Below, piece by piece: positions 43,446 through 64,000 of a stretch of 64,000 nt of DNA. This stretch comes from a virus. Its lineage: Duplodnaviria; Caudoviricetes. Where the stretch lies: IMG/VR virus record IMGVR_UViG_3300017963_000189; one strand, given 5' to 3'. Numbering within the stretch: the stretch's first letter is position 1; every line of letters starts with the position of its first letter. The position numbers were made by a program, and so were the translations under genes. A model generated the notes under the pieces. The model was not told where the DNA came from. It made no database searches and saw only the letters and a program-made list of their open reading frames with translations.

Positions 43446-43769
43446 TTATTTTAAAGAGTCCGTTTTAGAAATATTACCTTTACCAATAGTACCTTTTACT
43501 ACTACAGCGTTTCCTTTAGGAGTTATTTCTAAACCCTTTGGTTTTACGTGATGAATAACTATATCACTTTTCTTTTTCGCCAATCCTTTTTTCATGGCGG
43601 CCATGATCGCGTCCTCTTTTGATTTCGCTAACCAAATGTTCTTGTCCTTCGTCTTTGAAGAATCTAATGGAAGTTTTACATCACTTGTAGTTCCATGATA
43701 CAGCGTCGCTTCGTTTAAAAATTTATTAACTTCCTCTTTAATGATTTCTTTGAGTCTTTCCATTTTCAC
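43446..43769 (-). CDS. Class B leader plus ADP-ribosyltransferase-fold (Tpt1/KptA-like) small domain
   Basis: Leader KMERLKEIIKEEVNKFLNE then ATLYHGT...IWLAKSKEDAI...IVIHHV; GTG start with SD GGAG. Confidence 0.55.
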   Translation of the reverse strand: MKMERLKEIIKEEVNKFLNEATLYHGTTSDVKLPLDSSKTKDKNIWLAKSKEDAIMAAMKKGLAKKKSDIVIHHVKPKGLEITPKGNAVVVKGTIGKGNISKTDSLK

Positions 43770-43782
43770 TTTATTTCTCCAA

Positions 43783-44025
43783 TTATAATGATTGTCGCCG
43801 TGTCTCGTGTCTCTGACGAGCCTTAGCTTTAGAAAGTTTGTCTCGTTTGATTGCAGATGGTTTTGTGTATTGTTGTGTCTTTTGTATGTCCAACATTAAC
43901 TCACTATCTTTTATTATTCTCTTTAATTTCTTTAACGCATACTCTAAGGCTCGATCCTTATCAATCTTTTTATTTAATTCAACATAATAACCTCTTAACC
44001 GTATGTTATCTACATTCTCTGGCAT
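43783..44025 (-). CDS. rpsU: Phage-encoded ribosomal protein bS21 homolog
   Basis: LEYALKKLKR...ELMLDIQKTQQYTKPSAIKR..KAKARQR matches the bS21 pattern (LExALRRFKR...xYEKPSxKR). Start placed at ATG 44025 after SD AGGAGGT; alternative start 44058. Confidence 0.8.
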   Translation of the reverse strand: MPENVDNIRLRGYYVELNKKIDKDRALEYALKKLKRIIKDSELMLDIQKTQQYTKPSAIKRDKLSKAKARQRHETRRQSL

Positions 44026-44069
44026 AATACCTCCTGTTGTTTTGCTTCTTTGTGACATTTATATTACCT

Positions 44070-44372
44070 TTATTTTTTTAATCCTCGTGCTAATTCACGA
44101 TAAAATTTTGCTATTTTTTGAGCAGCCATAATGTCAAGAGACGCAAAAGCATCATGATAATCACTACTTTTAGGCTCCCTACTCGGCAACGCAGCAATTA
44201 ATTTTTCTTTCATTTCATCAGTATCATTTTGATCTAATAAATCAGTTACTGATACTATATCGTCAGCTATTCTTAATAAATAACTACTCACCACTCCAGC
44301 TACTCTATCAACTTTATCTTCCGTTATTAGAGTATTCTCATTTAAAATCTTGTTCCATTGTTCTTTTTTCAT
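44070..44372 (-). CDS. Class C leader (MKKEQWNKILNENTLITE) helical cargo protein
   Basis: 100 aa; leader shared with 51160-51414 and 51424-51633. Confidence 0.7.
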   Translation of the reverse strand: MKKEQWNKILNENTLITEDKVDRVAGVVSSYLLRIADDIVSVTDLLDQNDTDEMKEKLIAALPSREPKSSDYHDAFASLDIMAAQKIAKFYRELARGLKK

Positions 44373-44373
44373 A

Positions 44374-45243: not shown

Positions 45244-45286
45244 TTTATTACTCCCTTTATTTATTTACATTTTTTTCTTGACTTTT

Positions 45287-47098
45287 TCACTTTTTTTTCG
45301 TAAATTTCTTGATTTTCCCTTTTAAAATATTAACTAATTTATCTATATCTTCCTCAGTTTTTATCTTTTTCTTTGTTCCATATAATAACTCGGCATCAGA
45401 TCGTCCTCTCTTATCAGTACCAACAACCGCTATTTCTACCTCAACAATATTACCATATATTGATACATCCAACACAGTTTTCCAATCATCCGATTGTATA
45501 GATGTCCCTTTACCAGGAACTAAAGTTAAATTCCAACCTCTTTTTCCATAACGTCTAATTTTATTGTCTAATGTCTTTAGTTTTTTATCTAAAAGAGTAC
45601 CTATTCTTCTTTCACTTAATTCATTTTCTTCTGTTACTAATGTATTCTCTTTTAACTTATTTGGTTTAAACTGTATTCGTTGTCTCATTTTTCCTGGATA
45701 TGGTTCTAATTCAAGTGTATAACTACCATCATTGTTTTTATGTAACCACACACCATCATGTCCAGTCCCCAAACCAAAACCAGCTTTATTTAATTTAGCA
45801 ACCAACTTACCAGCATTCTTTAATGTCAATTCACCTTTAGATACCACTACTTCACCATCACCATTATCAGCAACATATTTAGACGCTTCATTCATCATTA
45901 TTTCTTTCACTACACTACGAATAACTTCTTTTATTTCGCCCATCATCATTTCATCATGGCGAAAATCTATGTACGCTTCCATACTTGGTTGATCATCAAT
46001 TTCACCGGATTGAATGTACATCAATGTATCTTTAGCTAATTCCTTCATTTCCTTAGCGTTATATTTATACTTTTTCTTAGCATACTTGAGTCCATCTTTT
46101 ACCATATCCTTGTCAGATTTGATTTCATTCACTCCCTCTCTGCGGGCTTTCTCTCCAGCAGATGCTTGAGCAAAATGTTTGTATTGTTTTTTAGTCATTC
46201 CACCTTTTTTACCACCTTTTTCTCCAGCACTGGCTTTAGCAAAATGTTTGTATTGTTTTGGAGTCATTTTTTCGTCAAGTATGTCGCCTTCTTTTAACTC
46301 GGATAAATCGGGCGCGTATATCATTTGAAACTTTGATCCAGGATTTTTTATCCGGTCTGCTTTCATCCTCGTCAAACAAGTATTCTTGGACGCAATACAT
46401 TGTACCACTCCATCACGAGTATATCCGTATTCAGCGTCAGTTGGTAAATCAGTTACAGTATTTTCCTCAACACTCTCTTTTATAGTTTTCAACATATCAA
46501 CAGGAATTACCATTTCACTACCCTTCATATGTCCAGTCAATATTTCAACATCGGCTAATTTGTCAGTCGAATAATTCATAATTCTTCCAGTGTCGCCTTT
46601 CAAACTTGTAAAGTTCTTAAAAAATTGTTTTGGAATATATTTCGATGTTACTTTATATATTTTTACTTTATCTCCGATACCTTCATTCATTGTACTCTCC
46701 TTTACAAGTAAATCTGCATTGTTGATATATCCTTTTTCTTTTCCAACTTTTACTATAGCGTACCCGCTCGCTGGAGCTTCGTCACTTACTTTACCCATTT
46801 TACCTTTATGTTTTCCATACATTACTTTAACTTTCGATCCAACAGGTATTTCACTATCAGGATATTCCTTAGAATAGTTTATCCAACCTTCATTTACACT
46901 CTCAGGAACTTCCTCAGGTAATCCCTTATGTTTTGTCTTAGCAAACTTTTCAGTATCCTTGTCTTTCATTGTTTTAGCAATACCTTTGATTTTATCCTGC
47001 AACGCCTTAGGAAGTTTACCCATTTCTAACTCACCCTTTTCATAGGCATGTACCATACCCATTAATCGTTGCTGCGATTTACTCACTGCTGGACACAT
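45287..47098 (-). CDS. Putative polyprotein of about 7 small basic modules
   Basis: 603 aa; modules bounded by SVNE, TMNE, SVEE, ILDE, GVNE, MMNE, ELSE; includes two KOW/SH3-like units and an N-terminal PAVSKSQQRLMGMVHA module. Confidence 0.7.
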   Translation of the reverse strand: MCPAVSKSQQRLMGMVHAYEKGELEMGKLPKALQDKIKGIAKTMKDKDTEKFAKTKHKGLPEEVPESVNEGWINYSKEYPDSEIPVGSKVKVMYGKHKGKMGKVSDEAPASGYAIVKVGKEKGYINNADLLVKESTMNEGIGDKVKIYKVTSKYIPKQFFKNFTSLKGDTGRIMNYSTDKLADVEILTGHMKGSEMVIPVDMLKTIKESVEENTVTDLPTDAEYGYTRDGVVQCIASKNTCLTRMKADRIKNPGSKFQMIYAPDLSELKEGDILDEKMTPKQYKHFAKASAGEKGGKKGGMTKKQYKHFAQASAGEKARREGVNEIKSDKDMVKDGLKYAKKKYKYNAKEMKELAKDTLMYIQSGEIDDQPSMEAYIDFRHDEMMMGEIKEVIRSVVKEIMMNEASKYVADNGDGEVVVSKGELTLKNAGKLVAKLNKAGFGLGTGHDGVWLHKNNDGSYTLELEPYPGKMRQRIQFKPNKLKENTLVTEENELSERRIGTLLDKKLKTLDNKIRRYGKRGWNLTLVPGKGTSIQSDDWKTVLDVSIYGNIVEVEIAVVGTDKRGRSDAELLYGTKKKIKTEEDIDKLVNILKGKIKKFTKKK

Positions 47099-47111: not shown

Positions 47112-47672
47112 TTATCTTACACTATTTACAAGTTTATACGCTTGTTTCAACGCTTTAGCTGCGTGTTTAGCACTTTGAAATACTTCGTAATCTTCACCAA
47201 TGTTTACCAACTCATTCAATCCATCTTCAACATCGGCTAATAGATTTTTGTAGTATTTGTAATCAGGTTTTTCTTTCTCTTGTAATGGCTGTCCTTGTTC
47301 ATCAAGAAATTTTTCGCCTTTTTCATTAAATTGTCCAGGAAGTCCTTTAAACTCAAAATTATCTTCCCTTTTTGGCGACAATCCTACAACTTGACCCACT
47401 GGTAATAAACTTGAAATCATTACCATTCCTTCATCTAACTTTTCTTTTTTAGATGTTTTGTTTTCACCTACATTTTCTTTTAAAGGTTGTATTACATCAA
47501 TAGGTACAACAATCGTAGCACCTTTCCATTCACCATCTAACATTTTAATGGTTACAGAATCTTCAGGTTGAACTACTCCAGAATCACCTACAAATTTTTT
47601 AAAAGTGCTTCCCGAAATCTTCCCTTTGGCGCGATGAATTTTTACTTTATCACCGGGTTTAAATTTAGCCAT
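47112..47672 (-). CDS. Three-module putative cargo protein (KOW/SH3-like + LDE-bounded repeat + helical)
   Basis: 186 aa; N-terminal module similar to a module of the 603-aa ORF; middle module duplicated in 47686-48375. Confidence 0.7.
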   Translation of the reverse strand: MAKFKPGDKVKIHRAKGKISGSTFKKFVGDSGVVQPEDSVTIKMLDGEWKGATIVVPIDVIQPLKENVGENKTSKKEKLDEGMVMISSLLPVGQVVGLSPKREDNFEFKGLPGQFNEKGEKFLDEQGQPLQEKEKPDYKYYKNLLADVEDGLNELVNIGEDYEVFQSAKHAAKALKQAYKLVNSVR

Positions 47673-47685
47673 TTAATTTCTCCAT

Positions 47686-48375
47686 TTATTTAAAAGGTTG
47701 TATCTTTCCTAATTTTGACATTTCTTTTTCAAATGCTTTAAAAGCATCTTCAACTGTTTTTTCAATTTTCTTCGGATCGGCTTCTTTCATTTTGATAGTC
47801 CACGTATGATCATTACCAAAACCAAAACTAACTTGATAATAATCCCAAAGTTTTGTTATTCGAACAGGAAAATATGTATTTATTATATTTTTTGGACGAG
47901 GGCTTAAATATTCAGTATCCCTTTTTTCGTTTATAGTTTCTTCCTCAATCTTATTACCCATTTCATCTAATACCTTTACGCCTTCTTCGTTGAATTGACC
48001 AGGTAATCCCTTAAACTCAAAATTGTCTTTTCGTTCTGGCATTAAACCAATGACACCACCAACAGGTAAAAGGCTCGACATCATTACCATACCTTCATCA
48101 AGTTTTTGCTTACTTTCACTTACAACTTTTTTCGCAGCAGCAAGCACATCTTTTTGATTTGTTTCAATCTCCTTTACAGCAGCTACAAAGAATTTTTGAG
48201 CGACACCCTTTTCACTCTTAGCTTTTTTCTTCGCTTCCTCATACATATCAAGAAACATCTGTGACGCTTCTTTTTTGTCTTTAGCTTTCTCAATACTCTT
48301 TGCACGAATTGTCCAATCTTTAGTCAATTTTGCTACAGTAGCAATATCTTTAAAGAATCCTTCATCTAATTTCAT
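47686..48375 (-). CDS. Three-module putative cargo protein
   Basis: 229 aa; MKLDE start; shares the LDEGMVM...FEFKGLPGQFNE...LDE module with 47112-47672. Confidence 0.7.
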   Translation of the reverse strand: MKLDEGFFKDIATVAKLTKDWTIRAKSIEKAKDKKEASQMFLDMYEEAKKKAKSEKGVAQKFFVAAVKEIETNQKDVLAAAKKVVSESKQKLDEGMVMMSSLLPVGGVIGLMPERKDNFEFKGLPGQFNEEGVKVLDEMGNKIEEETINEKRDTEYLSPRPKNIINTYFPVRITKLWDYYQVSFGFGNDHTWTIKMKEADPKKIEKTVEDAFKAFEKEMSKLGKIQPFK

Positions 48376-48916: not shown

Positions 48917-49525
48917 TTATTCTCCCATATCTATAAGAATATCAGTTACGATTTCTTGTACTTTACAATATTTGTTTACACATACTTGACCATACTTATC
49001 AACACTTTCTTGAATAGGTTTCATAAACGCACCGTGTGTCGATGGATTACTTACCATATCAAAAGCAATCAACTCAAAATCGTCTTGGACGACCGCACCA
49101 TGTTCAGCAGATTCTTGAACCGATCCCAACCCACGAGAAGAAATACCTACAAGAATACCACCTTTCAATAATTCTTGAAGAATTTTTCCTGCAGGAGTAT
49201 TCAACACTTCTATTGTACCGATTAAGTCTTTACCTTCCCAATGCATTTCAACTATATTATGACTTACATTAGCTAAGTTTACGACAGAAGAATCGGGATG
49301 ATCTAACTCACCCAATGCTCGTTTTTCGCCAATCAACTGTTCATATTTTTTCGCTTCCCTGGCGAGAATAGGTTGTGGATATACACGACCATTTTGATTT
49401 TGTGCTTCTGCTCGTTGTAATATACCCTTGATCAAAATCTTACCATTGTGTACTTTCATTGATTCTCGTATTACACCACCCGCTATTTCTAAAGGCATAT
49501 ACTCCGCTAATATCTGCTTATTCAT
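48917..49525 (-). CDS. gp21: Prohead core protease (T4 gp21-like)
   Basis: NQNGRVYP, LGELDHP, VSHNI, GISSRGLGS, DFELIAFDMVSNPS motifs. Confidence 0.95.
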   Translation of the reverse strand: MNKQILAEYMPLEIAGGVIRESMKVHNGKILIKGILQRAEAQNQNGRVYPQPILAREAKKYEQLIGEKRALGELDHPDSSVVNLANVSHNIVEMHWEGKDLIGTIEVLNTPAGKILQELLKGGILVGISSRGLGSVQESAEHGAVVQDDFELIAFDMVSNPSTHGAFMKPIQESVDKYGQVCVNKYCKVQEIVTDILIDMGE

Positions 49526-49541: not shown

Positions 49542-50198
49542 TTATTTTATAGGTTTTTTCAAATTTTTCAAGGCTTCTTGTTTCGCTTTAATATCGTTTT
49601 CTAAATCTTTTATTGTAGAATTTAAATCACTTTTATTTGATTCAAGAGCAGTATACCAACTACCTTTTTTACCAATTTTTTCAAGAGATTCATTCCGTGT
49701 ACGAGCATATACAGCAAACAAAGGAGTTCCCATACTATTGCCTTCCATATCACTTTGATATATCAAAAATAATTTTTCAGGAACTACTTTTGGATCAATC
49801 TCAACTAATTCATCATCAGAAAAACTATATCTATAAACATTTCCTTTCTTTCCATTAAATAAATATACATCTCCGTAATCTTTATTCCTTTTCGCTTGAG
49901 AAAATAAAGATTTGATTTTATTTCCCGCAAATTCTACATACCAATCGGCTAATACACCAACTTCTTTCGGCTTTCTTGTTCTTGGATTACCATAATTTTT
50001 CCAATTATCCATAGTCCAATCTGATACATCCAAGTTAGGAGTATTCTTTAGAGCATCCAAAAATTTATCTCTATTTTTCAAAGTAAGTTTGACGGCTTTC
50101 TTACCATATTTCTTAAAAAACGCACCACCAACATTTTCATTCAATAAAAAATTTTGAACTTCCTCTTTAATTATTTCATTCAATCTTGAACGTTTCAT
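49542..50198 (-). CDS. Class B leader (MKRSRLNEIIKEEVQNFLLNE) cargo protein
   Basis: 218 aa; basic globular body with C-terminal coiled coil. Confidence 0.7.
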   Translation of the reverse strand: MKRSRLNEIIKEEVQNFLLNENVGGAFFKKYGKKAVKLTLKNRDKFLDALKNTPNLDVSDWTMDNWKNYGNPRTRKPKEVGVLADWYVEFAGNKIKSLFSQAKRNKDYGDVYLFNGKKGNVYRYSFSDDELVEIDPKVVPEKLFLIYQSDMEGNSMGTPLFAVYARTRNESLEKIGKKGSWYTALESNKSDLNSTIKDLENDIKAKQEALKNLKKPIK

Positions 50199-50207: not shown

Positions 50208-50585
50208 TTATACCCACATTTGACGTTTCTTAAATAAATCAAAAAAGACGGCAGCAATCTCGGCTCGTATTATATCTTTAATCTCTGCAAAATCTTTTCT
50301 ACTCAATGCTTCATCTAATCTTTGTTGTTGTAATTGTCTTTCCTCATAAAGAATAAGTAAATTGTTGTCTAACTCCGCTACCGTCTTATTTTTATCATAC
50401 CATGTAAAACCATGCACCTCTTTTTCTTCGTCAGTATATTTTACTTTCATTCTTTTAAGTTGTTTAAGAGCTTCTGCTTTGTCTTTTACTCTAATAAATA
50501 CTTTACCTTGAGAAGGCAATCCCTTAAACTCTTTTATCATTTCTTCACGAATAATTTCTTTTATTCTATCTTTTGAAATTTTCAT
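50208..50585 (-). CDS. Class B leader (MKISKDRIKEIIREEMIKE) two-module protein
   Basis: 125 aa; second module after QRLDE (ALSRKDFAEIKDIIRAE...KKRQMWV). Confidence 0.7.
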   Translation of the reverse strand: MKISKDRIKEIIREEMIKEFKGLPSQGKVFIRVKDKAEALKQLKRMKVKYTDEEKEVHGFTWYDKNKTVAELDNNLLILYEERQLQQQRLDEALSRKDFAEIKDIIRAEIAAVFFDLFKKRQMWV

Positions 50586-50589: not shown

Positions 50590-51153
50590 TTACCTTATCT
50601 TTTTGGCGGCCGCATTCATTTTACCTGAATCCAACACTTGTTGTATCAAATGATATGTATCTAATGGATTAGCATATCCAAGTTTTTTATGTTCCGTACT
50701 TAAAAAATCTAATATGTCTTTCCTTACTTGATTTAGTGTTTCGCCAGTGAAATGTAATTCATTGACCCTCTCACCACCTAAATTATCCTCACCAGGTTCC
50801 TCAGTCAAATCTATTAAATCCCACGACATAGGCCAGTTGTATTTTATGTTCTTTATCTTTTCACCACTTAATCGGGCTGCTTCATCTCGTTTCATTGTCG
50901 TTGTCGGTGTGTGAATGTTTCCACCTTTGTAATACTCGCCCGTTGTCTTTCGTTGTAATAAATAATATTTATTCTTATCAACATCAATACTATTTGGAGT
51001 CATTTGTTGCCCAACTGGCTTTATCGCTTCTTGTCTAATTTTAGGATTAAGAAGTTCTTTCATTTTTATAGGATTTTCATTCAATCTATAATATGTTGAA
51101 CGATCATACGCATCCTCTTTTCCTAACATTTTATACCAAAGTTTTTTATCCAT
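50590..51153 (-). CDS. Class C-like leader multi-module protein
   Basis: 187 aa; MDKKLWYKML leader; internal RLNE, IRQE, DLTE, RVNE. Confidence 0.65.
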   Translation of the reverse strand: MDKKLWYKMLGKEDAYDRSTYYRLNENPIKMKELLNPKIRQEAIKPVGQQMTPNSIDVDKNKYYLLQRKTTGEYYKGGNIHTPTTTMKRDEAARLSGEKIKNIKYNWPMSWDLIDLTEEPGEDNLGGERVNELHFTGETLNQVRKDILDFLSTEHKKLGYANPLDTYHLIQQVLDSGKMNAAAKKIR

Positions 51154-51159: not shown

Positions 51160-51414
51160 TTATCCCTTTTGAGCATCCATTATACGAGCCCTTACCCATT
51201 CTTGTAATTCTCTAAGCATTAACAACTTGATCATTTTATGATCATATGGTACATTCACTCTTTTTTTGATAAAATCCATTTGTTTCATTTCAGCTTTAAC
51301 CGCAGCATTTATCACTTTATTTAGAACTTCTTTAGCAGCTTTCGCATCATGATTTTTATCTTCACTAACTAAAGTGTTTTCATTTAATATTTTGTTCCAA
51401 GTTTTTTTATCCAT
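51160..51414 (-). CDS. Class C leader (MDKKTWNKILNENTLVSE) cargo protein
   Basis: 84 aa; first 15 aa identical to 51424-51633. Confidence 0.75.
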   Translation of the reverse strand: MDKKTWNKILNENTLVSEDKNHDAKAAKEVLNKVINAAVKAEMKQMDFIKKRVNVPYDHKMIKLLMLRELQEWVRARIMDAQKG

Positions 51415-51423: not shown

Positions 51424-51633
51424 TTAAAAAGTAATTTCAATTTTCTTAGGCTTATTTTTCATTTTTTTTATTAACGCAACTAACTTATCATATAATTTTT
51501 GATCGTGATCGTGTTTTTTATCAGATGTATTATTAAAAATAATAACTGTACCTTGATAAGACGCAACAAAATCATTCCCACCTTCATTTAAAGTATTTTC
51601 ATTTAAAATTTTATTCCAAGTTTTCTTATCCAT
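51424..51633 (-). CDS. Class C leader (MDKKTWNKILNENTLNE) cargo protein
   Basis: 69 aa; body unrelated to the neighbour that shares its leader. Confidence 0.75.
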   Translation of the reverse strand: MDKKTWNKILNENTLNEGGNDFVASYQGTVIIFNNTSDKKHDHDQKLYDKLVALIKKMKNKPKKIEITF

Positions 51634-52757
51634 TAGAATCTCCGTATCTTATTAATGATCCTTGTCATTTTTTCATTTATCTTGTTCAAGGCTCTATGAG
51701 TATTTTTCCAATATTTTTGTGAATCAATTCCGGTCTCTTGTTTCAAACGAAGATTCAAGTCAATCGTTTTTTCTATCGATTCAAGTTGATTTCTTACGTC
51801 TCTAATGGCGACACCGATTTTTTGTTTGTTGTTCATTGTATCATCGTCACGATAATTTTGATAAGCTCCACGGCGACCCTCTTTGACCACTTTTATTACT
51901 TGACCAGAAGAATCTTCTACAGATATTTTAGCCCCTTTGTTATCCTTTTTCATCACACTAATAACATCGTCTATCTCTTTGTGATCAGTTGTATGAAATT
52001 GATCCACTACCTTATTATTCTTTATAGCAACTATTGAATAACTTTTTCTCGCTTCATTTACACTTTCATTCGTTGATCCCATATATGATTTTATTTCATT
52101 TAAAAAATAAGTTAAATCGGACAACTCAGCTAATCCCCAACTCTCATTTCGCCGTCTCGCTAAATTTAACTTTTTAATATAAGAATCTAACTTTTTCATC
52201 ATTCCTTTTTTGTCGGCTTTCGCTTCATTTATAATACCTTCCTCTAACTTGTCGCCACCACCGGTAAATGGACGCTTACCACCAAAATTACCAAAATCTT
52301 GTTTATCAGATTGAGTTACTTCTTGATATAATTCAATCGTTATTTCTTCATTCAATCCACTTCTTACTTTCATTTCAGCAAACTTCTTACGATATACTAA
52401 TGATTCTTTACGAGCATTTGCTAAATCTTCCCAATCCCGATCCTCAGGATCATTTACAAGTTTATATCCAAGTTGTTGTGAAATTTCCCTTGTCCTATCC
52501 TTCAAACTCTTGGCGAAAGCATATGGAGTTTGGTATCCATCTTGACCGCCCATGGCAGTTACTGAACTCACTTCGTCAAGTTCTTCATCTTTTCGTTTAT
52601 CACACGTTTCATTCTTTTCACATTTCTCACACGGCGTTCCACATTCGCCAATATCACATTTATCTTTTTCCTCGTCCTCAATGTCAAATTGATCCATTTC
52701 TTGTTCAATCATTGTTCGTATCAATTCACGAATATCACTTTCATTTAAATTAGCCAT
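51633..52757 (-). CDS. Putative polyprotein (probable start MANLNE at 52757)
   Basis: SD AAGGAG before 52757; class B-like leader; Cys cluster; modules bounded by ELDE, GLNE, IINE, SVNE, VVKE; C-terminal coiled-coil module QKIG...YWKNT. Confidence 0.7.
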   Translation of the reverse strand: MANLNESDIRELIRTMIEQEMDQFDIEDEEKDKCDIGECGTPCEKCEKNETCDKRKDEELDEVSSVTAMGGQDGYQTPYAFAKSLKDRTREISQQLGYKLVNDPEDRDWEDLANARKESLVYRKKFAEMKVRSGLNEEITIELYQEVTQSDKQDFGNFGGKRPFTGGGDKLEEGIINEAKADKKGMMKKLDSYIKKLNLARRRNESWGLAELSDLTYFLNEIKSYMGSTNESVNEARKSYSIVAIKNNKVVDQFHTTDHKEIDDVISVMKKDNKGAKISVEDSSGQVIKVVKEGRRGAYQNYRDDDTMNNKQKIGVAIRDVRNQLESIEKTIDLNLRLKQETGIDSQKYWKNTHRALNKINEKMTRIINKIRRF

Positions 52758-53667: not shown

Positions 53668-53718
53668 CAATATTCCCCTTATCAGATTTTTTCTTCTAAT
53701 AAATCATATTCTATCACA

Positions 53719-55685: not shown

Positions 55686-56045
55686 TTATATGTCCACTAC
55701 TTTTGTTCCGGGTTTCGGCTTAAATCCAACTTTTTTCATTACAGTTATAATCGTCAACTCTAATATATCACCTTTTTCTTTTAATATACCTACAAGATTT
55801 AGTTTTGTCCTTGAATCTCGTATAAGAATATAATCTCCAACATTTATGTTGTCGCCAATTAATTCCCGACTTATCGGCTCAATCGCTCTCTGAGCAACCG
55901 CAAGAATCTCCTTGTCAGTAATTTCCTCAGCGTGTCTAAATTGACGCTGACCGGCATGAACAGTCTTGTCTAACTCAATCGTTACATTGATCTTGCGAGA
56001 TACTTTACCAATAGATTTTTCCATAAGTTGTTTTAGTTTTATCAT
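55686..56045 (-). CDS. Class A leader plus DUF4258-like (BECR RNase-fold) domain
   Basis: MIKLKQLME leader; KTVHAGQRQFRH..EITDKEI...LTIITV pattern. Confidence 0.5.
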   Translation of the reverse strand: MIKLKQLMEKSIGKVSRKINVTIELDKTVHAGQRQFRHAEEITDKEILAVAQRAIEPISRELIGDNINVGDYILIRDSRTKLNLVGILKEKGDILELTIITVMKKVGFKPKPGTKVVDI

Positions 56046-56926
56046 AATCCCGTAGCACCTTCACCTTTTTTCCAACCTTGTTTCGCCCGAATGGCGAAAA
56101 GAAGTTGACCCATAAGTTTTTTATCGGCTTCAGTTGATGTCTTTTTCGCTTTAAGAGCAGCAACTTGTTTTTTAAGTTGTCCAATGGTTTTATCGGCATG
56201 TTGTCCCGTACTCTTTACATCTACATCACCTTCCCATTTTTCCATCAATACCTCTCTAACCACTTTGCGAATCATTTCTTTCAATTCACTTTTCTTCATG
56301 GTTATTTCTCCCAAATGATCTTTTAATATAAGGGCATATTTTGACCAATCTTTAGGTAAAATCATACTCTTATCTTTTGGTTGTCCTTTTAACACCTTTA
56401 TTCCATCTGGCGTAAACAACATAAGTTTTTTAGATTTTGGTAATTGTCCAATAATACCTTTTCCACTAAGAAAGTTTTTTGTTAACTCTTTCTTTTGATC
56501 TTGTGGAATGGGCATTTTTTCTATTCTAAAATCTATTCCATCAATACCCTTTTCATCATAGTCGCCGTGTGGCAATTCACATATCAAACTTTCATTCACA
56601 ATACTTTCTCCTATATTTCCAACAAACCCAATTTTCCAAGGCGTTGGCGAATATTCACTCCATTTTGACTTGTCTACCTCAACATCAAACATCTTTCCCA
56701 TAAATGTAAATCGACCCGCTAACTTGTCGATTGTTCCCGTTTTCGCCGAGTTCGCGATCTTCTTTATGATGTTTTTGTATTTTGGTACTTCGTCTGGCGA
56801 TTTTTTCAAGGCTTCATATACTTTCTTCCAAATCTTACCAAACTCTTGTAAGGTTTTCCGGTCTTCTGGTAAATTGACAGTCCCTCTATCAACCTGAACC
56901 TTGACCTTTTCTAATAATTTTTCCAT
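56042..56926 (-). CDS. Three-module putative polyprotein with internal restart
   Basis: 294 aa; boundaries IVNE, HLGE, VLME; internal SD plus ATG at 56299. Confidence 0.7.
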   Translation of the reverse strand: MEKLLEKVKVQVDRGTVNLPEDRKTLQEFGKIWKKVYEALKKSPDEVPKYKNIIKKIANSAKTGTIDKLAGRFTFMGKMFDVEVDKSKWSEYSPTPWKIGFVGNIGESIVNESLICELPHGDYDEKGIDGIDFRIEKMPIPQDQKKELTKNFLSGKGIIGQLPKSKKLMLFTPDGIKVLKGQPKDKSMILPKDWSKYALILKDHLGEITMKKSELKEMIRKVVREVLMEKWEGDVDVKSTGQHADKTIGQLKKQVAALKAKKTSTEADKKLMGQLLFAIRAKQGWKKGEGATGL

Positions 56927-57101: not shown

Positions 57102-57377
57102 TTACTTCATTCCCATTGATTTTCGTTTTCTCATTGAAATTCTTCGTTTTCTATTTATTTGTGATTTTTTCGCCTTTCGTTTCTTGGCGGCTTTCCTCTG
57201 CGCGATCTTTCGCCTCATTTTCTCGCCCGCTGACATTTTTTTGTACTTACCACCTACTACCTTGAAGCCCTTTTTGGGTTTCTTCCGACGTATCTTCTTA
57301 CCCTTGCGGATTACATACTTGTACGCCTCACCTAAAATTTCCTCGTCTATGTCCTCTAATATATCAAATAGTTTCAT
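57102..57377 (-). CDS. gp68: Prohead core protein gp68-like (acidic leader + K/R-rich body)
   Basis: MKLFDILEDIDEEILGE then IRKGKKIRRK...GFKVVGG...MSAGEKMRRK...RKRRISMRKRKSMG. Confidence 0.65.
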   Translation of the reverse strand: MKLFDILEDIDEEILGEAYKYVIRKGKKIRRKKPKKGFKVVGGKYKKMSAGEKMRRKIAQRKAAKKRKAKKSQINRKRRISMRKRKSMGMK

Positions 57378-57378: not shown

Positions 57379-59010
57379 TTAATAAAATTGTTTTAAACTA
57401 ATTACTTCTTTTCCAATGTCCATTTCATTAGGATCACGAGTTATTATTCCTGGCTTGTAAACACCTAAATCTAACTCAGATTTTCCTATCCTATCTAACG
57501 CCATCTTAGTCAACTCAATCCCTTCACTTCTTAGCCGTAACGCTGTGTCCCTGACCCATAATAAAATACCTAACGACATTACTAAATCGTCATTTCGTCC
57601 ACTTTGAGCCTCAGCTTTACCGTGATTCCAAATGAATACCTTTAATTCATTTATCAATCGTTGAGAATAAATTTTGAAGGCATTATCTTCATTATTATTA
57701 TCCTCAAAATATCTTTCTATTTTAGCAATTAATAGGGCTCTATTTCTATGTGTTGTGGCGAAACCTGGTTTCATCTTTTTCATGTCACGATTTATTTTGT
57801 TGTTTATGTTTCGCATCGAATCAACATATTGTAAATCGTTACTTGAGTAAAATAAGTTTTGATAATTTATATCAATAAGTTCTTGAATAGTATCCCAACC
57901 GACATTCTCACGTTCAACAACGATCAAAGCGTTGTTGTATTCCACTCCAACGGCAGCAAGGAGTCTACCATATTCACGAGTGTTAGCTTGACCTTTATAC
58001 TCAGCAACCTGAGTTAAACTTTCCGCATCAAATACATGGAACGCGGAATAATCACTCCCGTCGCCTCGAGCAACGTCAGCAGCTATAATGTAAGAACGAG
58101 AATAATCGGGATATTCCCAAATCCATAACCCTTTATCAATAGAACGTTTTTCATTAGGCTCTCTTACAAAAGAATCTTCATAAAATTTCAATGTCATAAG
58201 ATCAACAACATTATTACCTGAAGCAAGAAAGTCAGCATCACATTCCTGAGAGGCAAGTCTTACACCTAAATCAACATCTTGTTTGTCTCTCCATTTTTGA
58301 TCTCTTTCCGGATGAACAGTCCATTTCAATGAAATAGTTTCGAAATTATTTTTCTTTTCTGTAGCGTCACTCCACATATCATAAAACCAATTACCCATAC
58401 CGTTAGGAGTTGATAATACAATACAATCTCCACCAGTATCAAGAGTTGATTTAGCAGCACCCCAGATTTCAACGATGTCACGAACGAACGCAGCTTCATC
58501 AATAATAAGAAGTGACAATGCTTCAGAACGACCAGCAGTTGGCGAACTTGAGACAGCTTTTATTTGTGATCCATTTTTAAAGGCAAGAGACATTTTGTTA
58601 TCTTCCAATGTTTGAGTTTTTAACCAACTTGGAAGTCCATCATACATAACTCTTACTTTTGTTATTAAGTTTTTCGCCACTTCCTTTTTCGTGGCGATTA
58701 CCAATATGTTTTGATCCTCGTTGAATAACATTAACCATAACGCGTAGGCAGCAGTCAACGTCGATAATCCTAACTGACGTGACTTTAAAATAATAGTATA
58801 AGCAGCTTCCTCAGTCCCACGATTACGAGCAAATACATTCGTACAATCCTCTTGAAATGGATATAAAATGAACGGTACTTTCCCACGTTTCGGATGTTGA
58901 ATAATACAATACTTCTTAAAGAAATAATTAGCTTCCCGAGCACAATGTTTATACTCACCAGCTATTATTTGTTTTAATGTCTTTTTCTTTACAGGTAATT
59001 GTTGTACCAT
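57379..59010 (-). CDS. terL: Terminase large subunit (T4 gp17-like)
   Basis: Walker A region LKSRQLGLST, Walker B LIIDEAAF, nuclease motifs ADVARGDGSDYSA and NDDLVMS. Confidence 0.97.
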   Translation of the reverse strand: MVQQLPVKKKTLKQIIAGEYKHCAREANYFFKKYCIIQHPKRGKVPFILYPFQEDCTNVFARNRGTEEAAYTIILKSRQLGLSTLTAAYALWLMLFNEDQNILVIATKKEVAKNLITKVRVMYDGLPSWLKTQTLEDNKMSLAFKNGSQIKAVSSSPTAGRSEALSLLIIDEAAFVRDIVEIWGAAKSTLDTGGDCIVLSTPNGMGNWFYDMWSDATEKKNNFETISLKWTVHPERDQKWRDKQDVDLGVRLASQECDADFLASGNNVVDLMTLKFYEDSFVREPNEKRSIDKGLWIWEYPDYSRSYIIAADVARGDGSDYSAFHVFDAESLTQVAEYKGQANTREYGRLLAAVGVEYNNALIVVERENVGWDTIQELIDINYQNLFYSSNDLQYVDSMRNINNKINRDMKKMKPGFATTHRNRALLIAKIERYFEDNNNEDNAFKIYSQRLINELKVFIWNHGKAEAQSGRNDDLVMSLGILLWVRDTALRLRSEGIELTKMALDRIGKSELDLGVYKPGIITRDPNEMDIGKEVISLKQFY

Positions 59011-59753: not shown

Positions 59754-60431
59754 TTATAAGGATTTTTTAGTTGAACCAGTTTGTGCTATTCGTTTCTTGG
59801 CAACTTTACGAGAAATTGTACCAGGAACTTCATTAAACATAACAAATTTAAGCTCTTCGCGAACCAACTTACGTACATAATTCTCAACTTTTTCTTGAGC
59901 AAGAATTTGATCACGTTTTTTAGCTTTCAAGCGTTGTGTTGGATTGTGTTCAGGTTCACCAGCAGCTTGAGAAACAGGTTCTAATGTTTCCTCAACAGCT
60001 TCTTCACCACTACCACCTTCACCTTTTGCTTTCCATTCGGCATCAACATCAGCAAAAAAGGTTTTCTTTTCTTCGTCACTCATTTGACCTAAATTACGGC
60101 CACCAAGTTTTTCTTTGAAAAACTTTTGGTATTCGGTTTCTTCTTGTAAAACTTCTTTGATAAGTTCTACAAGTTGTGTTCTTGTCATCTTCATTGTGTT
60201 TTCTCCTTGTTTATTTTCAGCTAATCCCACTATATTTACGTGCGGGATTGTTATATTATTTATTAAATATTGAGGCTTCCCTGTAAAATCTTTAGTCCTC
60301 TTTGCGATACGGCCAACTTTCTCTTTACTCTTTTCGGCTTTCGATCCAGCTACCATCGGGCTTGCCCCGTAATCAATGTAGTATTTTACCTTGTCGCCTT
60401 TTTTGTACATCTTTTTAGTTTTTTCTGCCAT
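59754..60431 (-). CDS. Putative polyprotein with internal restart
   Basis: 225 aa; KOW-like N-terminal module; internal SD plus ATG at 60194 giving MKMTRTQLVELIKEVLQE; YQKFFK...EKKTFF..VDAEW module. Confidence 0.7.
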   Translation of the reverse strand: MAEKTKKMYKKGDKVKYYIDYGASPMVAGSKAEKSKEKVGRIAKRTKDFTGKPQYLINNITIPHVNIVGLAENKQGENTMKMTRTQLVELIKEVLQEETEYQKFFKEKLGGRNLGQMSDEEKKTFFADVDAEWKAKGEGGSGEEAVEETLEPVSQAAGEPEHNPTQRLKAKKRDQILAQEKVENYVRKLVREELKFVMFNEVPGTISRKVAKKRIAQTGSTKKSL

Positions 60432-60441
60432 TGTATTACTC

Positions 60442-60969
60442 CTATCTTACCAATTCATGATCTTTACAATATTTTATTAATTTTTGTATATCTTCATCAG
60501 GAAAATCTTTACCATATACATTTCCTGCTCTACCTTTTCTTAAAAAATTCTCAAACCCTTTGTCCACTCGACCTTGAGCAGCTTGAACAGCAAGAGCAAC
60601 ATAATTCCTCTCCGCATCGTCTAAAAGATTTCCATTACTCAATACAAAATTTCTCAACTCAGGATACGCATCTTCATAAAACTTTCCTTGTGTCTTGAAA
60701 CTAATGTTTGGTTTTTTCTCAGGTTCCTTTTGACCTGGCTCACCTTTTTCCTTTTCCTTCTCTTGTTCGGCTTCCTCGCGATCTTCCTCTTTTTCTTCCT
60801 CATGATCAAATCGTTGTTTACTCAAATCTAACTTTTGTTGTTGTATGTCAGCTTTCTGTTTCGCAATGTCCTCTTTGTCCTTATCGATTTTTTCTTTTTC
60901 ATCTTCAGGTTGTTCCATAATCCTATTTATTTCTTCTATAATGATTTCCCTTATTCTTTGTATATCCAT
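60442..60969 (-). CDS. Class B leader (MDIQRIREIIIEEINRIME) protein
   Basis: 175 aa; charged coil plus globular C-terminus. Confidence 0.7.
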   Translation of the reverse strand: MDIQRIREIIIEEINRIMEQPEDEKEKIDKDKEDIAKQKADIQQQKLDLSKQRFDHEEEKEEDREEAEQEKEKEKGEPGQKEPEKKPNISFKTQGKFYEDAYPELRNFVLSNGNLLDDAERNYVALAVQAAQGRVDKGFENFLRKGRAGNVYGKDFPDEDIQKLIKYCKDHELVR

Positions 60970-60973
60970 TTTA

Positions 60974-61243
60974 TTATTCCCCTATTTGAGATTTTATTAA
61001 CATCGCAATTACAACTCCCAAAAGTCCAGCAAGTAAACCCCACACACCGGATTTAACTTGTAGTTTAGTTATCTCTCTTTCTAACTCATTTAATTTCGGT
61101 ACTATATCATCCTCTATCTTTTCCCTTATCTTGTCAACTTCTTTACGGAGTCGCCGTAAAGTTTCTATAACATATATCTTGTATCTGCCCCAACTCTTAT
61201 CATCATTCTCGACATTTCCAAGATCGCCAAATTTTTCATCCAT
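60974..61243 (-). CDS. Coiled coil + C-terminal TM protein (XhlA/holin-accessory-like)
   Basis: 89 aa; heptads then GVWGLLAGLLGVVIAMLI. Confidence 0.55.
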   Translation of the reverse strand: MDEKFGDLGNVENDDKSWGRYKIYVIETLRRLRKEVDKIREKIEDDIVPKLNELEREITKLQVKSGVWGLLAGLLGVVIAMLIKSQIGE

Positions 61244-61253
61244 GTTTCACCTT

Positions 61254-61526
61254 TTATTTTGCACTTTTGTTGAAAATACTATCTGCAGCAAATCCTACTC
61301 CAAATGAAGCAACCCATCCTAAACCACCACTGGCAACTAACGCTCCAAACGCTACTATAGCAGCTATCACCGTTACTACAGATTCTTTTAAATGAGTTTT
61401 AAAATATGTTTTAATATCGGCTAAAGTTTCACCTTTGATTTTTCTTTTCGCAAAGTGTGAAATAACACCTAATAACATAATAAAAAAGTTTAATAATACA
61501 TACCAAAATGTATATTCACCAAACAT
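61254..61526 (-). CDS. Holin-like three-TM membrane protein
   Basis: 90 aa; three hydrophobic segments with short charged loops and basic C-terminus. Confidence 0.55.
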   Translation of the reverse strand: MFGEYTFWYVLLNFFIMLLGVISHFAKRKIKGETLADIKTYFKTHLKESVVTVIAAIVAFGALVASGGLGWVASFGVGFAADSIFNKSAK

Positions 61527-62110
61527 TAATCCTCTCCCTCTTTAAGTTTATCTAACTCTTTATTCACTTCCTCAAGTTCTTTTTCCCAAAATTTGATCAA
61601 ATCATTTATATCAACATCCATCTTTTTCACTTCACCTTCAGATGTTACATATTCCAAACATCCCTTTTCTTTCATTTGTTTTATGTAACTCTCAATCTCA
61701 AGTTTAGAATCTTCATAAAATCCATTTTTCTTGTTATTCATATACTTTTCTTGATAACCAATAAAAGTACCCTCTTTCTCCATCTGGGCGTCCCGATCAA
61801 GTAAACATTGTAAACAAAACCCAAACTTATAATATACTTCAGTATCCTTTGACCTTTTACCCATTATTCCACTACATTTTGGGCAAAACAATGGTACTCT
61901 TACATCAGAAAACTTTGGAATACTTCTTACGATTCCATCTTTCATTTCCCACTCTTTACCATATTCATCTGTCCATGTGTCGCCTTCTTCGTGGCGCTCT
62001 TCTACCTTATCATAACCTATTTGAATCTTCTTGTCCGCTACACCGTGTAACGTCTCTTGAATCTTCTTTGGTTTTATGTAACCCATAGGCCTTAAACTTG
62101 ACTTCGCCAT
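61526..62110 (-). CDS. Zn-finger hypothetical protein
   Basis: 194 aa; CPKC...CLQC; SD AGGAGG. Confidence 0.75.
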   Translation of the reverse strand: MAKSSLRPMGYIKPKKIQETLHGVADKKIQIGYDKVEERHEEGDTWTDEYGKEWEMKDGIVRSIPKFSDVRVPLFCPKCSGIMGKRSKDTEVYYKFGFCLQCLLDRDAQMEKEGTFIGYQEKYMNNKKNGFYEDSKLEIESYIKQMKEKGCLEYVTSEGEVKKMDVDINDLIKFWEKELEEVNKELDKLKEGED

Positions 62111-62118
62111 ACTGCCTC

Positions 62119-62628
62119 CTATAATTTATTTTTTATCAAATTTTTTAATTTTATTCTCGTCTCTACCAAACCAAATTCTTTGGCTAATTTTATAGCTTCC
62201 GGTTCATCAGCCAAACCACTTTTTACAAGTTTTGTATAATACTCAGGATCTTCCACTAAATGATCAATGGCAATCTCTTTAGCAGCTTCAGGATCAGGAG
62301 TATGTTCCATTTCTACCGCAATACCAACTTTTAGTTGTTTTGGACAAACCTTTTCTTCAGGTGTCCCGCTTCCTTTACCACCAGGTATTATATCTTCTCT
62401 CGTCAAATGTTTTGGGAATGGAAACATCGGCTTACCACCAGCAGCTTTATTTTTTGGAGCATATTTATTCCATAATTTCTCAGCAACTTTCTTGTCCACT
62501 TGTCCTAATAAGCTGTGTATCTTCTTTTGAACTTCATTCCCTTTTCGCCATTGATGTCCACTCGCCGTATGATCATAATACCAATTATGACCCTTCATTA
62601 ACGATTCTAATTCTTGAGCAACTCCCAT
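62119..62628 (-). CDS. Two-module protein with DUF5661-like domain
   Basis: IPGG...QLKVGIAVEMEHT.D...AKEIAIDHLVEDPEYY..L after LTRE; N-terminal GHNWYY module. Confidence 0.65.
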   Translation of the reverse strand: MGVAQELESLMKGHNWYYDHTASGHQWRKGNEVQKKIHSLLGQVDKKVAEKLWNKYAPKNKAAGGKPMFPFPKHLTREDIIPGGKGSGTPEEKVCPKQLKVGIAVEMEHTPDPEAAKEIAIDHLVEDPEYYTKLVKSGLADEPEAIKLAKEFGLVETRIKLKNLIKNKL

Positions 62629-62639
62629 ATCATTACTCC

Positions 62640-63113
62640 TTATATTTTACCTTCATACCCAATAGCTTTATCACCAACAACTAATTCGGCATCATCGGCA
62701 TATTTTTTATTGACAATCACTAATGTTTTTCCACCATGTTTAATTCTAAAATGAGCAACAGGTGACATAACAAAATCAATGTCCTTTTTCTTGAAAATAG
62801 CTTCTAATGGTTTTCTCATACTCATTAAAGCATTATCTTTAGCTATTTCACCAACCTTAGCAATTATCGGGTCTGTCGCCTCATTTATATTTTTATCCTC
62901 TAAAACCTCAACAATCATTTCACGAATCTCTTGACGTATCACACCCTCTTTGATTTTTTTCTTCGCCGCTGGCCACTCTTTCTTGATACGATTGAAAAAT
63001 TCACTTCTCTTGTCGCCTAATTGAACAGGTGATTTCACTTCGTATTCGTCCATAAGAGCTTTGAAAAACTCCCGGTACGCTTGTTGTAATTTACTTAACT
63101 TTACTTTCGCCAT
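62640..63113 (-). CDS. Two-module putative cargo protein with internal class B leader
   Basis: 157 aa; YREFFK...KRSEFF..IKKEW module, then IRQEIREMIVEVLEDKNINE. Confidence 0.7.
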   Translation of the reverse strand: MAKVKLSKLQQAYREFFKALMDEYEVKSPVQLGDKRSEFFNRIKKEWPAAKKKIKEGVIRQEIREMIVEVLEDKNINEATDPIIAKVGEIAKDNALMSMRKPLEAIFKKKDIDFVMSPVAHFRIKHGGKTLVIVNKKYADDAELVVGDKAIGYEGKI

Positions 63114-64000
63114 TGTTTATCTCCTTATAGCTCTTTTTATTTTTCATTTCTTCTTTATGATACCCCTTTTTGAGTCTCAAATGTTCCTTGTCAAAAATAC
63201 CCTCTTTTACACCTTTTTTCAAATAATAACCTATTGACGAAATAGCATCACTTAAAAAATCTTCGTCAAATCTCAGATAATACCTGGCTCTCTTTTTACC
63301 CAAATCTTTTTCACTTTGAATGGCGATTTGTTTTATCATATCATCTTGTTTCATACCTTTTTTGACTTTTTTATCTTTAATCAACTTTTTCGCCAATTCT
63401 TCGTGATAATATTCCTCTTTCAATATATGTTGGTATTCCTCTACAATAATCTCATAAAGTCTTTCTCTTGTGATTCCCATTTTCACATTCTCCTTTTTGA
63501 GCCGTGATTTTTCTCGGCGACCCTTATTAGTTGATTCATCCTCAAATCCACTTATCTTGCCACCTTTATGTGACGCATCCTTTCCATCACCATTTCCATA
63601 TGTACCTTTATCCCTATTGTACTTATTCAACTCTGCTCGATATTTCTTCATCTTATCTGATGATTGAAATTTCTTGTATTCATCCTTGTAATCTCGTTCT
63701 TTTTCTTCTTTCATCAACCCACGATTTACAAACCATTGTTTGTAAAATTGTGGAACATTGTTGAATTCCCTTATGGGAAATTCTTTGAGTACCGTCCAAT
63801 AGGCTTCCATTTGTAAAGATTGTCGTTCATTGTTTTGTGATGAAATAGGTACAATCTCATATTTGTCGCCAATCTTCTCGGCGCTCATCCACGAGGCAAA
63901 TGAGTTGTTTGTCTTGATCGCAATACGGTCACCATACGATTGTGTACCATATTTCTCAACCATCGCCTCATATAAAGCCTTGTCCGCATATAATTTAAAA
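63091..64000 (-). CDS. Putative polyprotein incl. HNH-like module (5' partial)
   Basis: Frame is open to the window edge (FKLYADKALYEA before the track's Met); modules bounded by LMKE, LKKE, ILKE, GVKE; internal SD plus ATG at 63480. Confidence 0.65.
   Translation of the reverse strand, partial: FKLYADKALYEAMVEKYGTQSYGDRIAIKTNNSFASWMSAEKIGDKYEIVPISSQNNERQSLQMEAYWTVLKEFPIREFNNVPQFYKQWFVNRGLMKEEKERDYKDEYKKFQSSDKMKKYRAELNKYNRDKGTYGNGDGKDASHKGGKISGFEDESTNKGRREKSRLKKENVKMGITRERLYEIIVEEYQHILKEEYYHEELAKKLIKDKKVKKGMKQDDMIKQIAIQSEKDLGKKRARYYLRFDEDFLSDAISSIGYYLKKGVKEGIFDKEHLRLKKGYHKEEMKNKKSYKEINNGESKVK

Follow-up and report, generated by a model that had tools for sequence, protein, structure and literature searches.

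Three families of short N-terminal leaders on unrelated proteins of a distant T4-type phage: a predicted multi-tag capsid-targeting and processing system

A 64,000-nt stretch of the virus record IMGVR_UViG_3300017963_000189 (the whole stretch is referred to here as the window) encodes many proteins of unrelated sequence that begin with one of three short leader peptides, termed classes A, B and C. The leaders were followed through the whole assembly, which is one contig of 168,383 bp of which the window covers bases 73,798-137,797, and into related phages. By comparison with phage T4, the three leaders are read as an enlarged, multi-tag form of the T4-type capsid-targeting and processing system, with enzymes among the predicted cargo; a probability of roughly 0.6 is given to this reading. 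It is drawn from the family of the phage protease, the L-x-E site of the capsid protein, the layout of class A, the occurrence throughout the lineage of N-terminal leaders on unrelated proteins, and the link between leaders and protease. The idea of tag-based capsid loading was anticipated in the T4 literature (PMC9026906). The principle is already known, and what is new here is the scale, the multiple tag classes and the enzyme cargo.

N-terminal leaders are carried by 22 proteins (class A by 8, class B by 8 and class C by 6). Five additional copies of class B are situated inside open reading frames (ORFs), giving that class 13 members and the genome 27 leader-bearing genes overall. The region 43446-64000 holds 15 of these ORFs, i.e., five with an N-terminal class B leader, five with an in-ORF class B copy, four with class C and one with class A; two further class A genes of the window are at 33374 and 33721. 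The leader genes of the window are listed below, with amino acid (aa) lengths, Shine-Dalgarno-like (SD) sequences where these precede a start, and scores in bits from the hidden Markov models (HMMs) described further on.

33374-33721, minus strand: class A, 115 aa; leader MISLKKLLKE at 33692-33721; leave-one-out score 9.5
33721-34080, minus strand: class A, 119 aa; leader MIKLKKLIKE at 34051-34080; two paralogues outside the window
55686-56045, minus strand: class A variant, 119 aa; leader MIKLKQLME at 56019-56045; leave-one-out score 6.7, weak
43446-43769, minus strand: class B, 107 aa; leader MKMERLKEIIKEEVNKFLNE at 43710-43769; external class B HMM 16.9
49542-50198, minus strand: class B, 218 aa; leader at 50136-50198, ending LLNE; external HMM 10.6
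50208-50585, minus strand: class B, 125 aa; leader at 50529-50585; external HMM 12.1
60442-60969, minus strand: class B-like, 175 aa, body acidic and charged; leader MDIQRIREIIIEEINRIME at 60913-60969; pattern match
51633-52757, minus strand: loose class B, 374 aa counted from MANLNE, with an SD-preceded start; motif IRELIRTMIEQE, followed by a box GYQTPYAF; pattern match
45287-47098, minus strand: 603-aa multi-module ORF; in-ORF class B-like motif at 45887-45943 and a LKENTL box; pattern match
56042-56926, minus strand: 294-aa ORF; in-ORF class B at 56240-56299, preceded by GGGAG and ATG; external HMM 4.7
59754-60431, minus strand: 225-aa ORF; in-ORF class B at 60138-60194, preceded by AAGGAG and ATG; external HMM 3.1
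62640-63113, minus strand: 157-aa ORF; in-ORF loose class B at 62898-62942, preceded by GAGG and GTG; pattern match
63091-63963, minus strand: ORF probably extending to 64020, past the window edge; in-ORF class B at 63415-63480, preceded by AAGGAG and ATG; external HMM 8.7
44070-44372, minus strand: class C, 100 aa; leader MKKEQWNKILNENTLITE at 44319-44372; leave-one-out score 21.1
51160-51414, minus strand: class C, 84 aa; leader at 51361-51414; leave-one-out score 29.9
51424-51633, minus strand: class C, 69 aa; leader at 51583-51633; leave-one-out score 30.3
50590-51153, minus strand: class C variant, 187 aa; leave-one-out score 10.2

All ORFs and motifs that a first-pass annotation had reported from the sequence were found where it had placed them and on the minus strand, including the class A leader on 33374, 33721 and 55686 and the class C leader on 44070, 51160 and 51424, with its variant on 50590. 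Ten leader genes were added from outside the window, in the same genome. The five class A bearers there are the two paralogues of 33721, a CCA-adding enzyme of 482 aa (TIGR02692, E 5e-64), a nucleotidase of the NT5C type and a protein of 585 aa. Class B is found on three proteins, namely a P-loop kinase (zeta/AAA type), an HD protein of the SpoT/RelA type and a protein of 74 aa, and class C on two small proteins whose genes adjoin that of the tail sheath.

The class A consensus is MIKLKxL[LI]xE, with a length of 10 residues. Class B reads RLKEIIKEEVxxFLNE and measures about 20 residues, with the core [LI]-[KR]-E-[IL]-I-[KR]-E-E and mostly an L-N-E ending, and the class C consensus is MDKKxWNKILNENTL (12-18 residues); overall the leaders span 9-21 residues. 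Classes B and C have a common ending, [FI]-L-N-E followed by [NA]-T-L. An [LIVM]-x-E box, which the first-pass annotation had seen in the leaders, is indeed present in 22 of the 22 N-terminal bearers as compared to 34% of other N-termini (positions 8-22), and the class B leaders display two to four L/I-x-E boxes each.

When the bodies are compared without their leaders, only 33721 and its two outside paralogues (3 of 22) are related, and the other 19 are without detectable similarity. The same leader residues are written in different codons (TTA/CTA/CTT/TTG, ATT/ATA/ATC, AAA/AAG, GAA/GAG), and the DNA upstream of the leaders is unrelated between genes. Thus the conserved unit is a peptide placed on unrelated proteins. 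The possibilities that the leaders represent a DNA repeat or a single paralogue family were also considered and are ruled out by the body comparison, the codon differences and the unrelated upstream DNA.

Leave-one-out HMMs were compared with the best score obtained from five shuffled proteomes (maximum 7.1 bits). The expected enrichment over shuffled proteomes was found for class C, where six of six members (10-30 bits) beat the shuffled maximum, and for five of the eight members of class A; it was not found for class B, which was hand-aligned with some seeds mis-registered and had no pass. A separate class B HMM was built from 48 foreign N-termini only and compared with 20 shuffles (maximum 5.2 bits). 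Its seven top matches in the proteome all belong to the 13-member class B list, and the shuffle maximum is exceeded by four (8.7-16.9 bits), namely 43446, 49542, 50208 and the copy inside 63091. A nine-residue pattern of residue classes gave 10 matches versus 0.17 expected, but as the pattern was widened after inspection of the data, these figures overstate the case. Class B membership of 51633, 45287, 62640, the kinase and the HD protein is by pattern only, and 60442 was recovered by neither the leave-one-out nor the external HMM. Class B is real but loose, with three to four solid members and several plausible ones.

The in-ORF copies of class B need separate consideration. Four of the five stand directly behind an SD-like sequence and an in-frame ATG or GTG, with starts at 56299, 60194, 62942 and 63480, against a background of 7.6% for internal in-frame starts (P 1.5e-4); in 45287, no SD sequence was found ahead of the internal Met. 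Thus these copies resemble nested translation starts, or else leader-bearing genes recently fused in frame to the gene upstream, and not tags that act in mid-chain. The first-pass annotation had listed the five ORFs (45287, 56042, 59754, 62640 and 63091) as carrying internal class B leaders and had envisaged internal address tags and dozens of released peptides. The motifs themselves are there; the internal tags and the dozens of peptides are unsupported in the form given.

Several of the modules are differently arranged in a close relative, locus L007, whose protease is 89% identical. The body of 50590, which has a class C-type leader here, is a separate gene in L007 (there are two genes there) and has the class A-like leader MPIKLKKIIDE. 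The L007 orthologue of 55686 begins MIKLKRLIE, and a module has been added at the N-terminus of the 51633 orthologue. It may also be noted that a 236-aa zinc-ribbon protein resembling homing endonucleases (L007:5284-5994, plus strand) is encoded between the L007 counterparts of 51633 and of a 306-aa protein gene described below; the window has no such gene.

The search of the genome and of relatives that the first-pass annotation had suggested shows classes A and B to be present throughout the lineage, on hundreds of ORFs of unrelated sequence from IMG/VR contigs, and strict class C in few relatives. Among 80 IMG/VR loci found by way of the protease, 25 carry class A ORFs, in all cases with the leader N-terminal and on the protease strand, and classes B and C are present in the closest of these loci. 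With a back-translated class A pattern, 89 of the 92 matches listed from a viral collection open an ORF of 40 aa or more. Where MIKLKxLL N-termini were gathered with positions 9-10 left free, Glu-10 is present in 57 of 66 among the matches listed (86%), and positions 6, 9, 11 and 12 each display ten or more different residues. A Glu that is kept between variable flanks is what is expected of a protease site with Glu at P1. In the loci examined there are at least 233 class A ORFs in at least 108 body families, 74 of them singletons. The class B core pattern is N-terminal in 60 of the 90 matches listed, with the consensus MK[IL]TKSxLKEIIREE[IL]QxLNE. Looser FLxENKL forms head three proteins of Flavobacterium phage immuto, and class B-like starts are found in that phage too. 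Orthologues of the CCA enzyme and of the nucleotidase on other contigs retain class A-like leaders. The set of leader bearers differs strongly between phages with 89% identical proteases, as seen in the comparison with L007. No publication describing these leaders was found in the literature, nor one of a MIKLK leader in a phage context.

The leaders are also linked to the protease when the contigs are chosen without regard to it. The protease family Peptidase_S77 is found on 16 of the 24 contigs of 40 kb or more that were picked solely for class A, most of which are fragments with an estimated completeness of 16-40%, and on eight of eight class B contigs of at least 43 kb. Combined, 24 of 32 large leader-carrying contigs have it; for comparison, the protease is matched by about 5% of cultured phage records (2605/50,697). 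The capsid gene on five carrier contigs was judged with the capsid protein of the present phage, as the Pfam Gp23 model matched none anywhere and is uninformative.

Judged by its genes, the window derives from a distant T4-type myophage. The head genes on which the comparison with T4 is built, and the conserved gene next to them, are as follows.

48917-49525, minus strand: prohead maturation protease, gp21 family, 202 aa; Pfam Peptidase_S77 PF03420, E 4.7e-30
40461-42098, minus strand: major capsid protein, gp23 type; tblastn to T4-superfamily capsid proteins, blastp to T4 gp23
42129-43286, minus strand: putative gp22-type scaffold, acidic and helical; assigned by position directly upstream of the capsid gene and by composition
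53742-55616, minus strand: portal, gp20 type; Pfam Portal_T4, E 1.3e-69; promoter-like motif before the gene
52750-53670, minus strand: conserved 306-aa protein, between the portal and leader genes; promoter-like motif upstream

The protease shows 36% identity to T4 gp21 (blastp), and its N-terminus includes MNKQILAE and PLE. The best tblastn matches of the capsid protein are an uncultured 484-kb phage (57%) and Microcystis phage Mel-JY01 (54%), followed by Flavobacterium phage immuto (51%) and Rhodothermus phage RM378 (39%). The maturation site of T4 gp23, FLTE|A (E65|A66), aligns with QL[LVI]xE|[AV] in this phage and 26 relatives, the predicted site in this phage being QLLDE|V. This alignment suggests that protease substrates of the lineage keep the L/I/V-x-E rule. 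The putative scaffold has a likely start MSNLIKE|A at 43250 and an N-terminus homologous to one in immuto; it has no match in Pfam or PHROG. The 306-aa protein has orthologues in L007 and immuto and likewise no family match in Pfam or PHROG. A gp24-type vertex paralogue was sought in the 168-kb contig and among class A ORFs, and none was found.

In the genome, the leader genes are confined to one region. All 27 are located at 72-152 kb of the contig, where the virion genes are, and none of the 96 genes elsewhere bears a leader (Fisher P 9e-12). Intergenic DNA makes up only 5% of the genome, yet it holds 17 of the 19 gene-strand copies of a strand-specific 10-mer motif, TATATTTATA. In the form TATATTTATAT(G/A)T the motif stands 23-70 nt before the sheath, fibre, adaptor, portal and other virion genes, and TATATTTATA also precedes the 306-aa gene and the first gene (class C) of a class C/B block outside the window. 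The genes of the window with the motif upstream are:

410-2734, 2844-3137, 10267-13131, 17884-27402, 36717-37919, 52750-53670 and 53742-55616

TATATTTATAT(G/A)T is probably the late promoter of the phage and is unlike that of T4, TATAAATA. The leader genes lie downstream of motif sites with stops and starts that often overlap, and thus their late co-expression is plausible. Upstream of foreign class A ORFs the motif was found in 16% as compared to 10% of all ORFs, which is no clear enrichment, and there is none for class B (5%).

The predicted mature bodies are mostly basic, 16 of 22 having an isoelectric point above 8.5 versus 25% of other proteins. For the cargo candidate 43446, the AlphaFold2 model (pLDDT 86) displays a separate leader helix at residues 3-20, ending at the LNE box, and a body from residue 22. 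Foldseek gave Tpt1/KptA (E 1.2e-3, TM 0.56-0.59) and Arr as top matches, and there was no Pfam or NCBIfam match. At the fold level, the modelled body thus comes closest to an NAD-binding fold of the ADP-ribosyltransferase (ART) type. An ART-like effector was one of four kinds that the first-pass annotation had named, and the other three fared less well: for KOW there is only a sub-threshold Pfam match in 45287 (E 0.0055), and Pfam found neither RNase nor HNH families in the proteins scanned, a scan that did not extend to 44070, 51160 and 51424.

In the mechanism that we propose, the tagged proteins would be made late, alongside the virion genes, and the short amphipathic N-terminal leader would give them affinity for the assembling scaffold core. 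After closure of the shell, the gp21-family protease would cut behind the Glu in the [L/I/V/M]-x-E box that ends the leader, and the mature protein would remain in the head and exit with the DNA upon infection. The predicted cargo would comprise many small basic proteins and the ART-fold protein and, from outside the window, the CCA-adding enzyme, the 5'-nucleotidase, the P-loop kinase and the SpoT-type HD hydrolase. Each of these steps, i.e., late timing, core binding, cleavage, retention in the head and injection, is put forward by analogy to T4. The first-pass annotation had likewise proposed tags resembling the T4 capsid-targeting sequence (CTS) for a gp21-type protease. That proposal is well supported on comparison by the protease, the L-x-E capsid site, the class A layout and the protease-linked leaders, and it falls short where it included internal tags.

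A number of observations weigh against a capsid-targeting and processing role. The [LIVM]-x-E box is frequent in this K/E/I/L-rich proteome, as the 34% among other N-termini shows, and 9 of the 66 listed MIKLKxLL N-termini are without Glu-10. Class B is a loosely defined, amphipathic motif, which besides its lack of a pass in the leave-one-out test has 6 of its 13 members missed by the independent HMM; its 8-residue core is also found in terminase N-termini and in a protein of about 560 aa of other phages. In L007 the orthologue of 56042 ends shortly after the B motif, which is therefore near its C-terminus. Strict class C is limited to two close relatives. One contig of 207 kb, which is rated as complete, carries a class A-like ORF but lacks both S77 and a T4-type capsid gene. 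Some of the cargo is large (472-576 aa after clipping), and the acidic proteins 60442 and 51633 look, by their composition, more like parts of the scaffold or core than like effectors. The late timing is taken solely from the promoter-like motif and the gene order, and virion proteomics, N-terminal sequencing and expression data were not found for this phage or, in the literature, for its cultured relatives immuto and Mel-JY01. A complex prediction that paired 33721 (class A) with residues 13-385 of the putative scaffold gave a score of 0.01 with uncertain folds, and counts neither way.

The main rival explanation accepts cleavage by the protease but takes most of the bearers to be scaffold, core or DNA-condensing proteins, equivalents of T4 gp22, gp67 and gp68, that are degraded or serve as structural filler and would not be effectors for delivery. 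The several L/I-x-E boxes in each class B leader are reminiscent of proteins that are chopped up, 60442 and 51633 are acidic, charged and scaffold-like, and the bodies in general are mostly small and basic. In addition, 50208 belongs to a small protein family that is retained directly upstream of the protease in many relatives, which is where T4 has genes 67 and 68, and the stretch DLIKEE...FLIE of T4 gp67 resembles class B. However, an hhalign comparison of this small class B family with T4 gp67, gp68 and gp22 was not significant (best E 0.043, probability 1%), and a structural role is not plausible for the CCA-adding enzyme, the NT5C nucleotidase, the kinase, the SpoT-type HD protein or the ART fold. 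Bearer sets that differ between phages with nearly the same protease also fit accessory cargo better. We regard this explanation as improbable.

Less likely is that the leaders tag another process, such as recognition by a chaperone or modification enzyme, tail or baseplate assembly, membrane attachment or timed degradation, and that the L-x-E box is incidental. The class A genes 33374 and 33721 do have genes for the tail and baseplate as neighbours, the outside block of class A genes adjoins very large genes, presumably structural, and that of an M15 peptidase, and the complete 207-kb contig has a class A-like ORF in the absence of S77. However, the ip and alt genes of T4 are likewise scattered outside its head cluster. 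The retention of Glu-10 between variable flanks, the layout that class A has in common with the proven leaders of T4 and the tight association of leaders with S77 contigs all speak for processing in the head, and a stretch of ten charged residues is not long enough to be a signal peptide or membrane anchor.

That the leaders have no tag function and are duplication leftovers, recombination linkers or products of translation-start selection is nearly excluded, for although three class A proteins are true paralogues, AT-rich and Lys-rich starts are common in the genome and relatives show fusions and splits of leader-bearing modules, the bodies are otherwise unrelated (the 108 or more class A families), the differing codons and unconserved upstream DNA leave no DNA-level repeat to recombine on, and Leu-4, Leu-7, Leu-8 and Glu-10 are kept though the proteases are only about 50-60% identical, for which translation efficiency is no explanation.

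Within the capsid-targeting reading, a more elaborate combination may be considered, which we think doubtful when its three parts are taken jointly. The leader classes may be distinct addresses that sort cargo to different places in the prohead, in different amounts or for different release orders; e.g., a gp24-like class A may act near the vertices, where the protease would start, and class B in the scaffold core. The CCA-adding enzyme, kinase, SpoT-type HD hydrolase, nucleotidase and Tpt1/ART-fold protein may form a repair kit that is injected with the DNA and would undo tRNA- or nucleotide-directed defences of the host before any phage gene is expressed. Finally, the nested in-frame starts would yield tagged and untagged forms of one module.

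If capsid targeting by clipped tags is correct, this way of loading would be a general, expandable means of delivery in a large environmental group of T4-type phages, and not a peculiarity of T4. More than 100 protein families have the class A tag in the loci examined, including tRNA- and nucleotide-acting enzymes. Injected proteins, which are likely anti-defence or take-over factors, could then be listed from metagenome sequence, what phages of these lineages inject besides DNA would become testable, and a short tag would be at hand for packaging foreign proteins into non-coli phages.

Other features of the phage and its leader regions are given here for completeness. The genome has a GC content of 0.35 and nearly every gene on the minus strand. 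One of the phage's proteins is also found on a contig of 309,378 bp, and thus this is probably a jumbo phage with a genome of about 300 kb. A megablast search of the region against cultured phages gave zero matches, and among ten neighbouring proteins PHROGs named a single one, a head-tail adaptor.

The large terminase (57379-59010, minus strand) has a class B-like N-terminal helix, TLKQIIAGEY (LKEIIREEY in many related phages), that directly precedes a conserved KCA..P..F..KYC box. Either this is a common type of helix, or the class B core mimics a terminase element. Directly downstream of the terminase, a 91-aa protein (57102-57377, minus strand) has an acidic N-terminal helix, MKLFDILEDIDEEILGE, with two L-x-E boxes, and an extremely basic Lys/Arg tail that recalls the basic C-terminus of T4 gp68. 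From its sequence it looks like a self-neutralised DNA-binding internal protein. Another 91-aa protein (43783-44058, minus strand) is a ribosomal protein S21 homologue, with a Pfam match above the cut-off (PF01165, E 1.9e-7); its gene lies between a class B and a class C gene in the head-gene block, and the protein is extended at the N-terminus by about 35 residues and has no leader.

A short box, [ST]-x(3-5)-G-Y-x-T-P-x-A-F, with a Lys-rich run behind it, is present at residues ~78-90 of ORF 51633-52787 (minus strand). Behind class B-like leaders, the GYxTPxAF box also occurs in a 73-aa protein of immuto (L087) and in many small foreign proteins encoded close to the protease; T4 gp68 has, for comparison, NAF and then a basic tail. 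The neighbouring proteins 47112-47672 and 47686-48375 (minus strand) have a common internal module of about 55 residues, KLDEGMVM.SSLLPVG...NFEFKGLPGQFNE, with unrelated ends, and this module is a fourth shared element besides the three leader families. The C-terminus of a DUF5661 protein (62119-62628, minus strand), RIKLKNLIKNKL, is like a class A leader without the Glu and may be a remnant of a rearranged leader.

Outside the window, a late-region block at genome positions 138757-152419 (L001) encodes a 932-aa protein resembling NMN-adenylyltransferase, a SpoT-type HD protein, a P-loop kinase, the CCA-adding enzyme with an HD domain, the NT5C nucleotidase and the M15 peptidase, several of them with class A or B leaders. 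These may constitute a set for RNA and nucleotide repair. A lone plus-strand ORF, 38100-38414 (104 aa, MSYIYLIKC...YKIGYS), is in a gap between late genes and by eye resembles a mobile endonuclease domain of the GIY-YIG/T5orf172 type, as a candidate only.

Several known systems invite comparison with the leaders. The cargo-loading peptides of encapsulins are short conserved peptides on unrelated enzymes that direct these into an HK97-fold shell. They are usually C-terminal, bind to the shell and are not removed by a protease, and their cargo is not delivered to another cell, so the likeness to the present leaders is one of functional analogy only.

In phages of the phiKZ type the propeptides are long and are not known to be a shared short tag. 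The giant phages phiKZ, 201phi2-1 and SPN3US contain many head-internal proteins, some of them paralogous, that lose their propeptides to a diverged gp21-type protease cutting after Glu, and many of these proteins are ejected into the host (PMC9026906, PMC7411985). These phages belong to another lineage with another set of capsid genes, and their cleavage motif is S/A-x-E, in contrast to the L/I/V/M-x-E box and the 9-21 residues of the leaders described here.

The closest parallel is with T4. T4 gp21 cleaves behind L/I-x-E, targeting to the head requires no more than the first 10 residues of IPIII, and within the CTS residues 4 and 7 serve targeting and residues 8 and 10 processing (PMC9026906). 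In the T4 record two genes (IPII and IPIII) begin MKTYQEFIAE. An Asp in place of the Glu at position 10 of the T4 leader prevents processing while leaving targeting intact. Like this CTS, class A is an N-terminal leader of about 10 residues, hydrophobic at positions 4 and 7, with I/L at 8 and Glu at 10, on bodies that are unrelated, and a gp21-family protease is present in both phages. The nearest T4 peptide is the propeptide of gp24, MAKINELLRE, of which gp21 removes exactly the first 10 residues (PMC9958956); class A shares M1, K3, L7, L8 and E10 with it (5 of 10), although gp24 is a shell protein and the class A bearers are proposed cargo. The ART-fold protein 43446 with its leader would, on its model, be a parallel to T4 Alt. 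The bearers also form a variable accessory set, as do the ip genes of T4 and T-even phages (PMC9026906, PMC3012670, PMC12373910). The differences are of number and kind. T4 has one leader class and three bearers, and T-even phages about ten ip families (PMC12373910), as compared to three classes and at least 22 bearers in the 168-kb contig, and T4 CTS cargo consists of small inhibitors, whereas sizeable enzymes are included here. Classes B and C are longer than the T4 CTS and agree with it only in the L-x-E ending, and class A has no sequence identity to MKTYQEFIAE beyond the residue pattern. As only this pattern is common to both, the leaders would work like the T4 CTS and represent a variant of it rather than the same tag.

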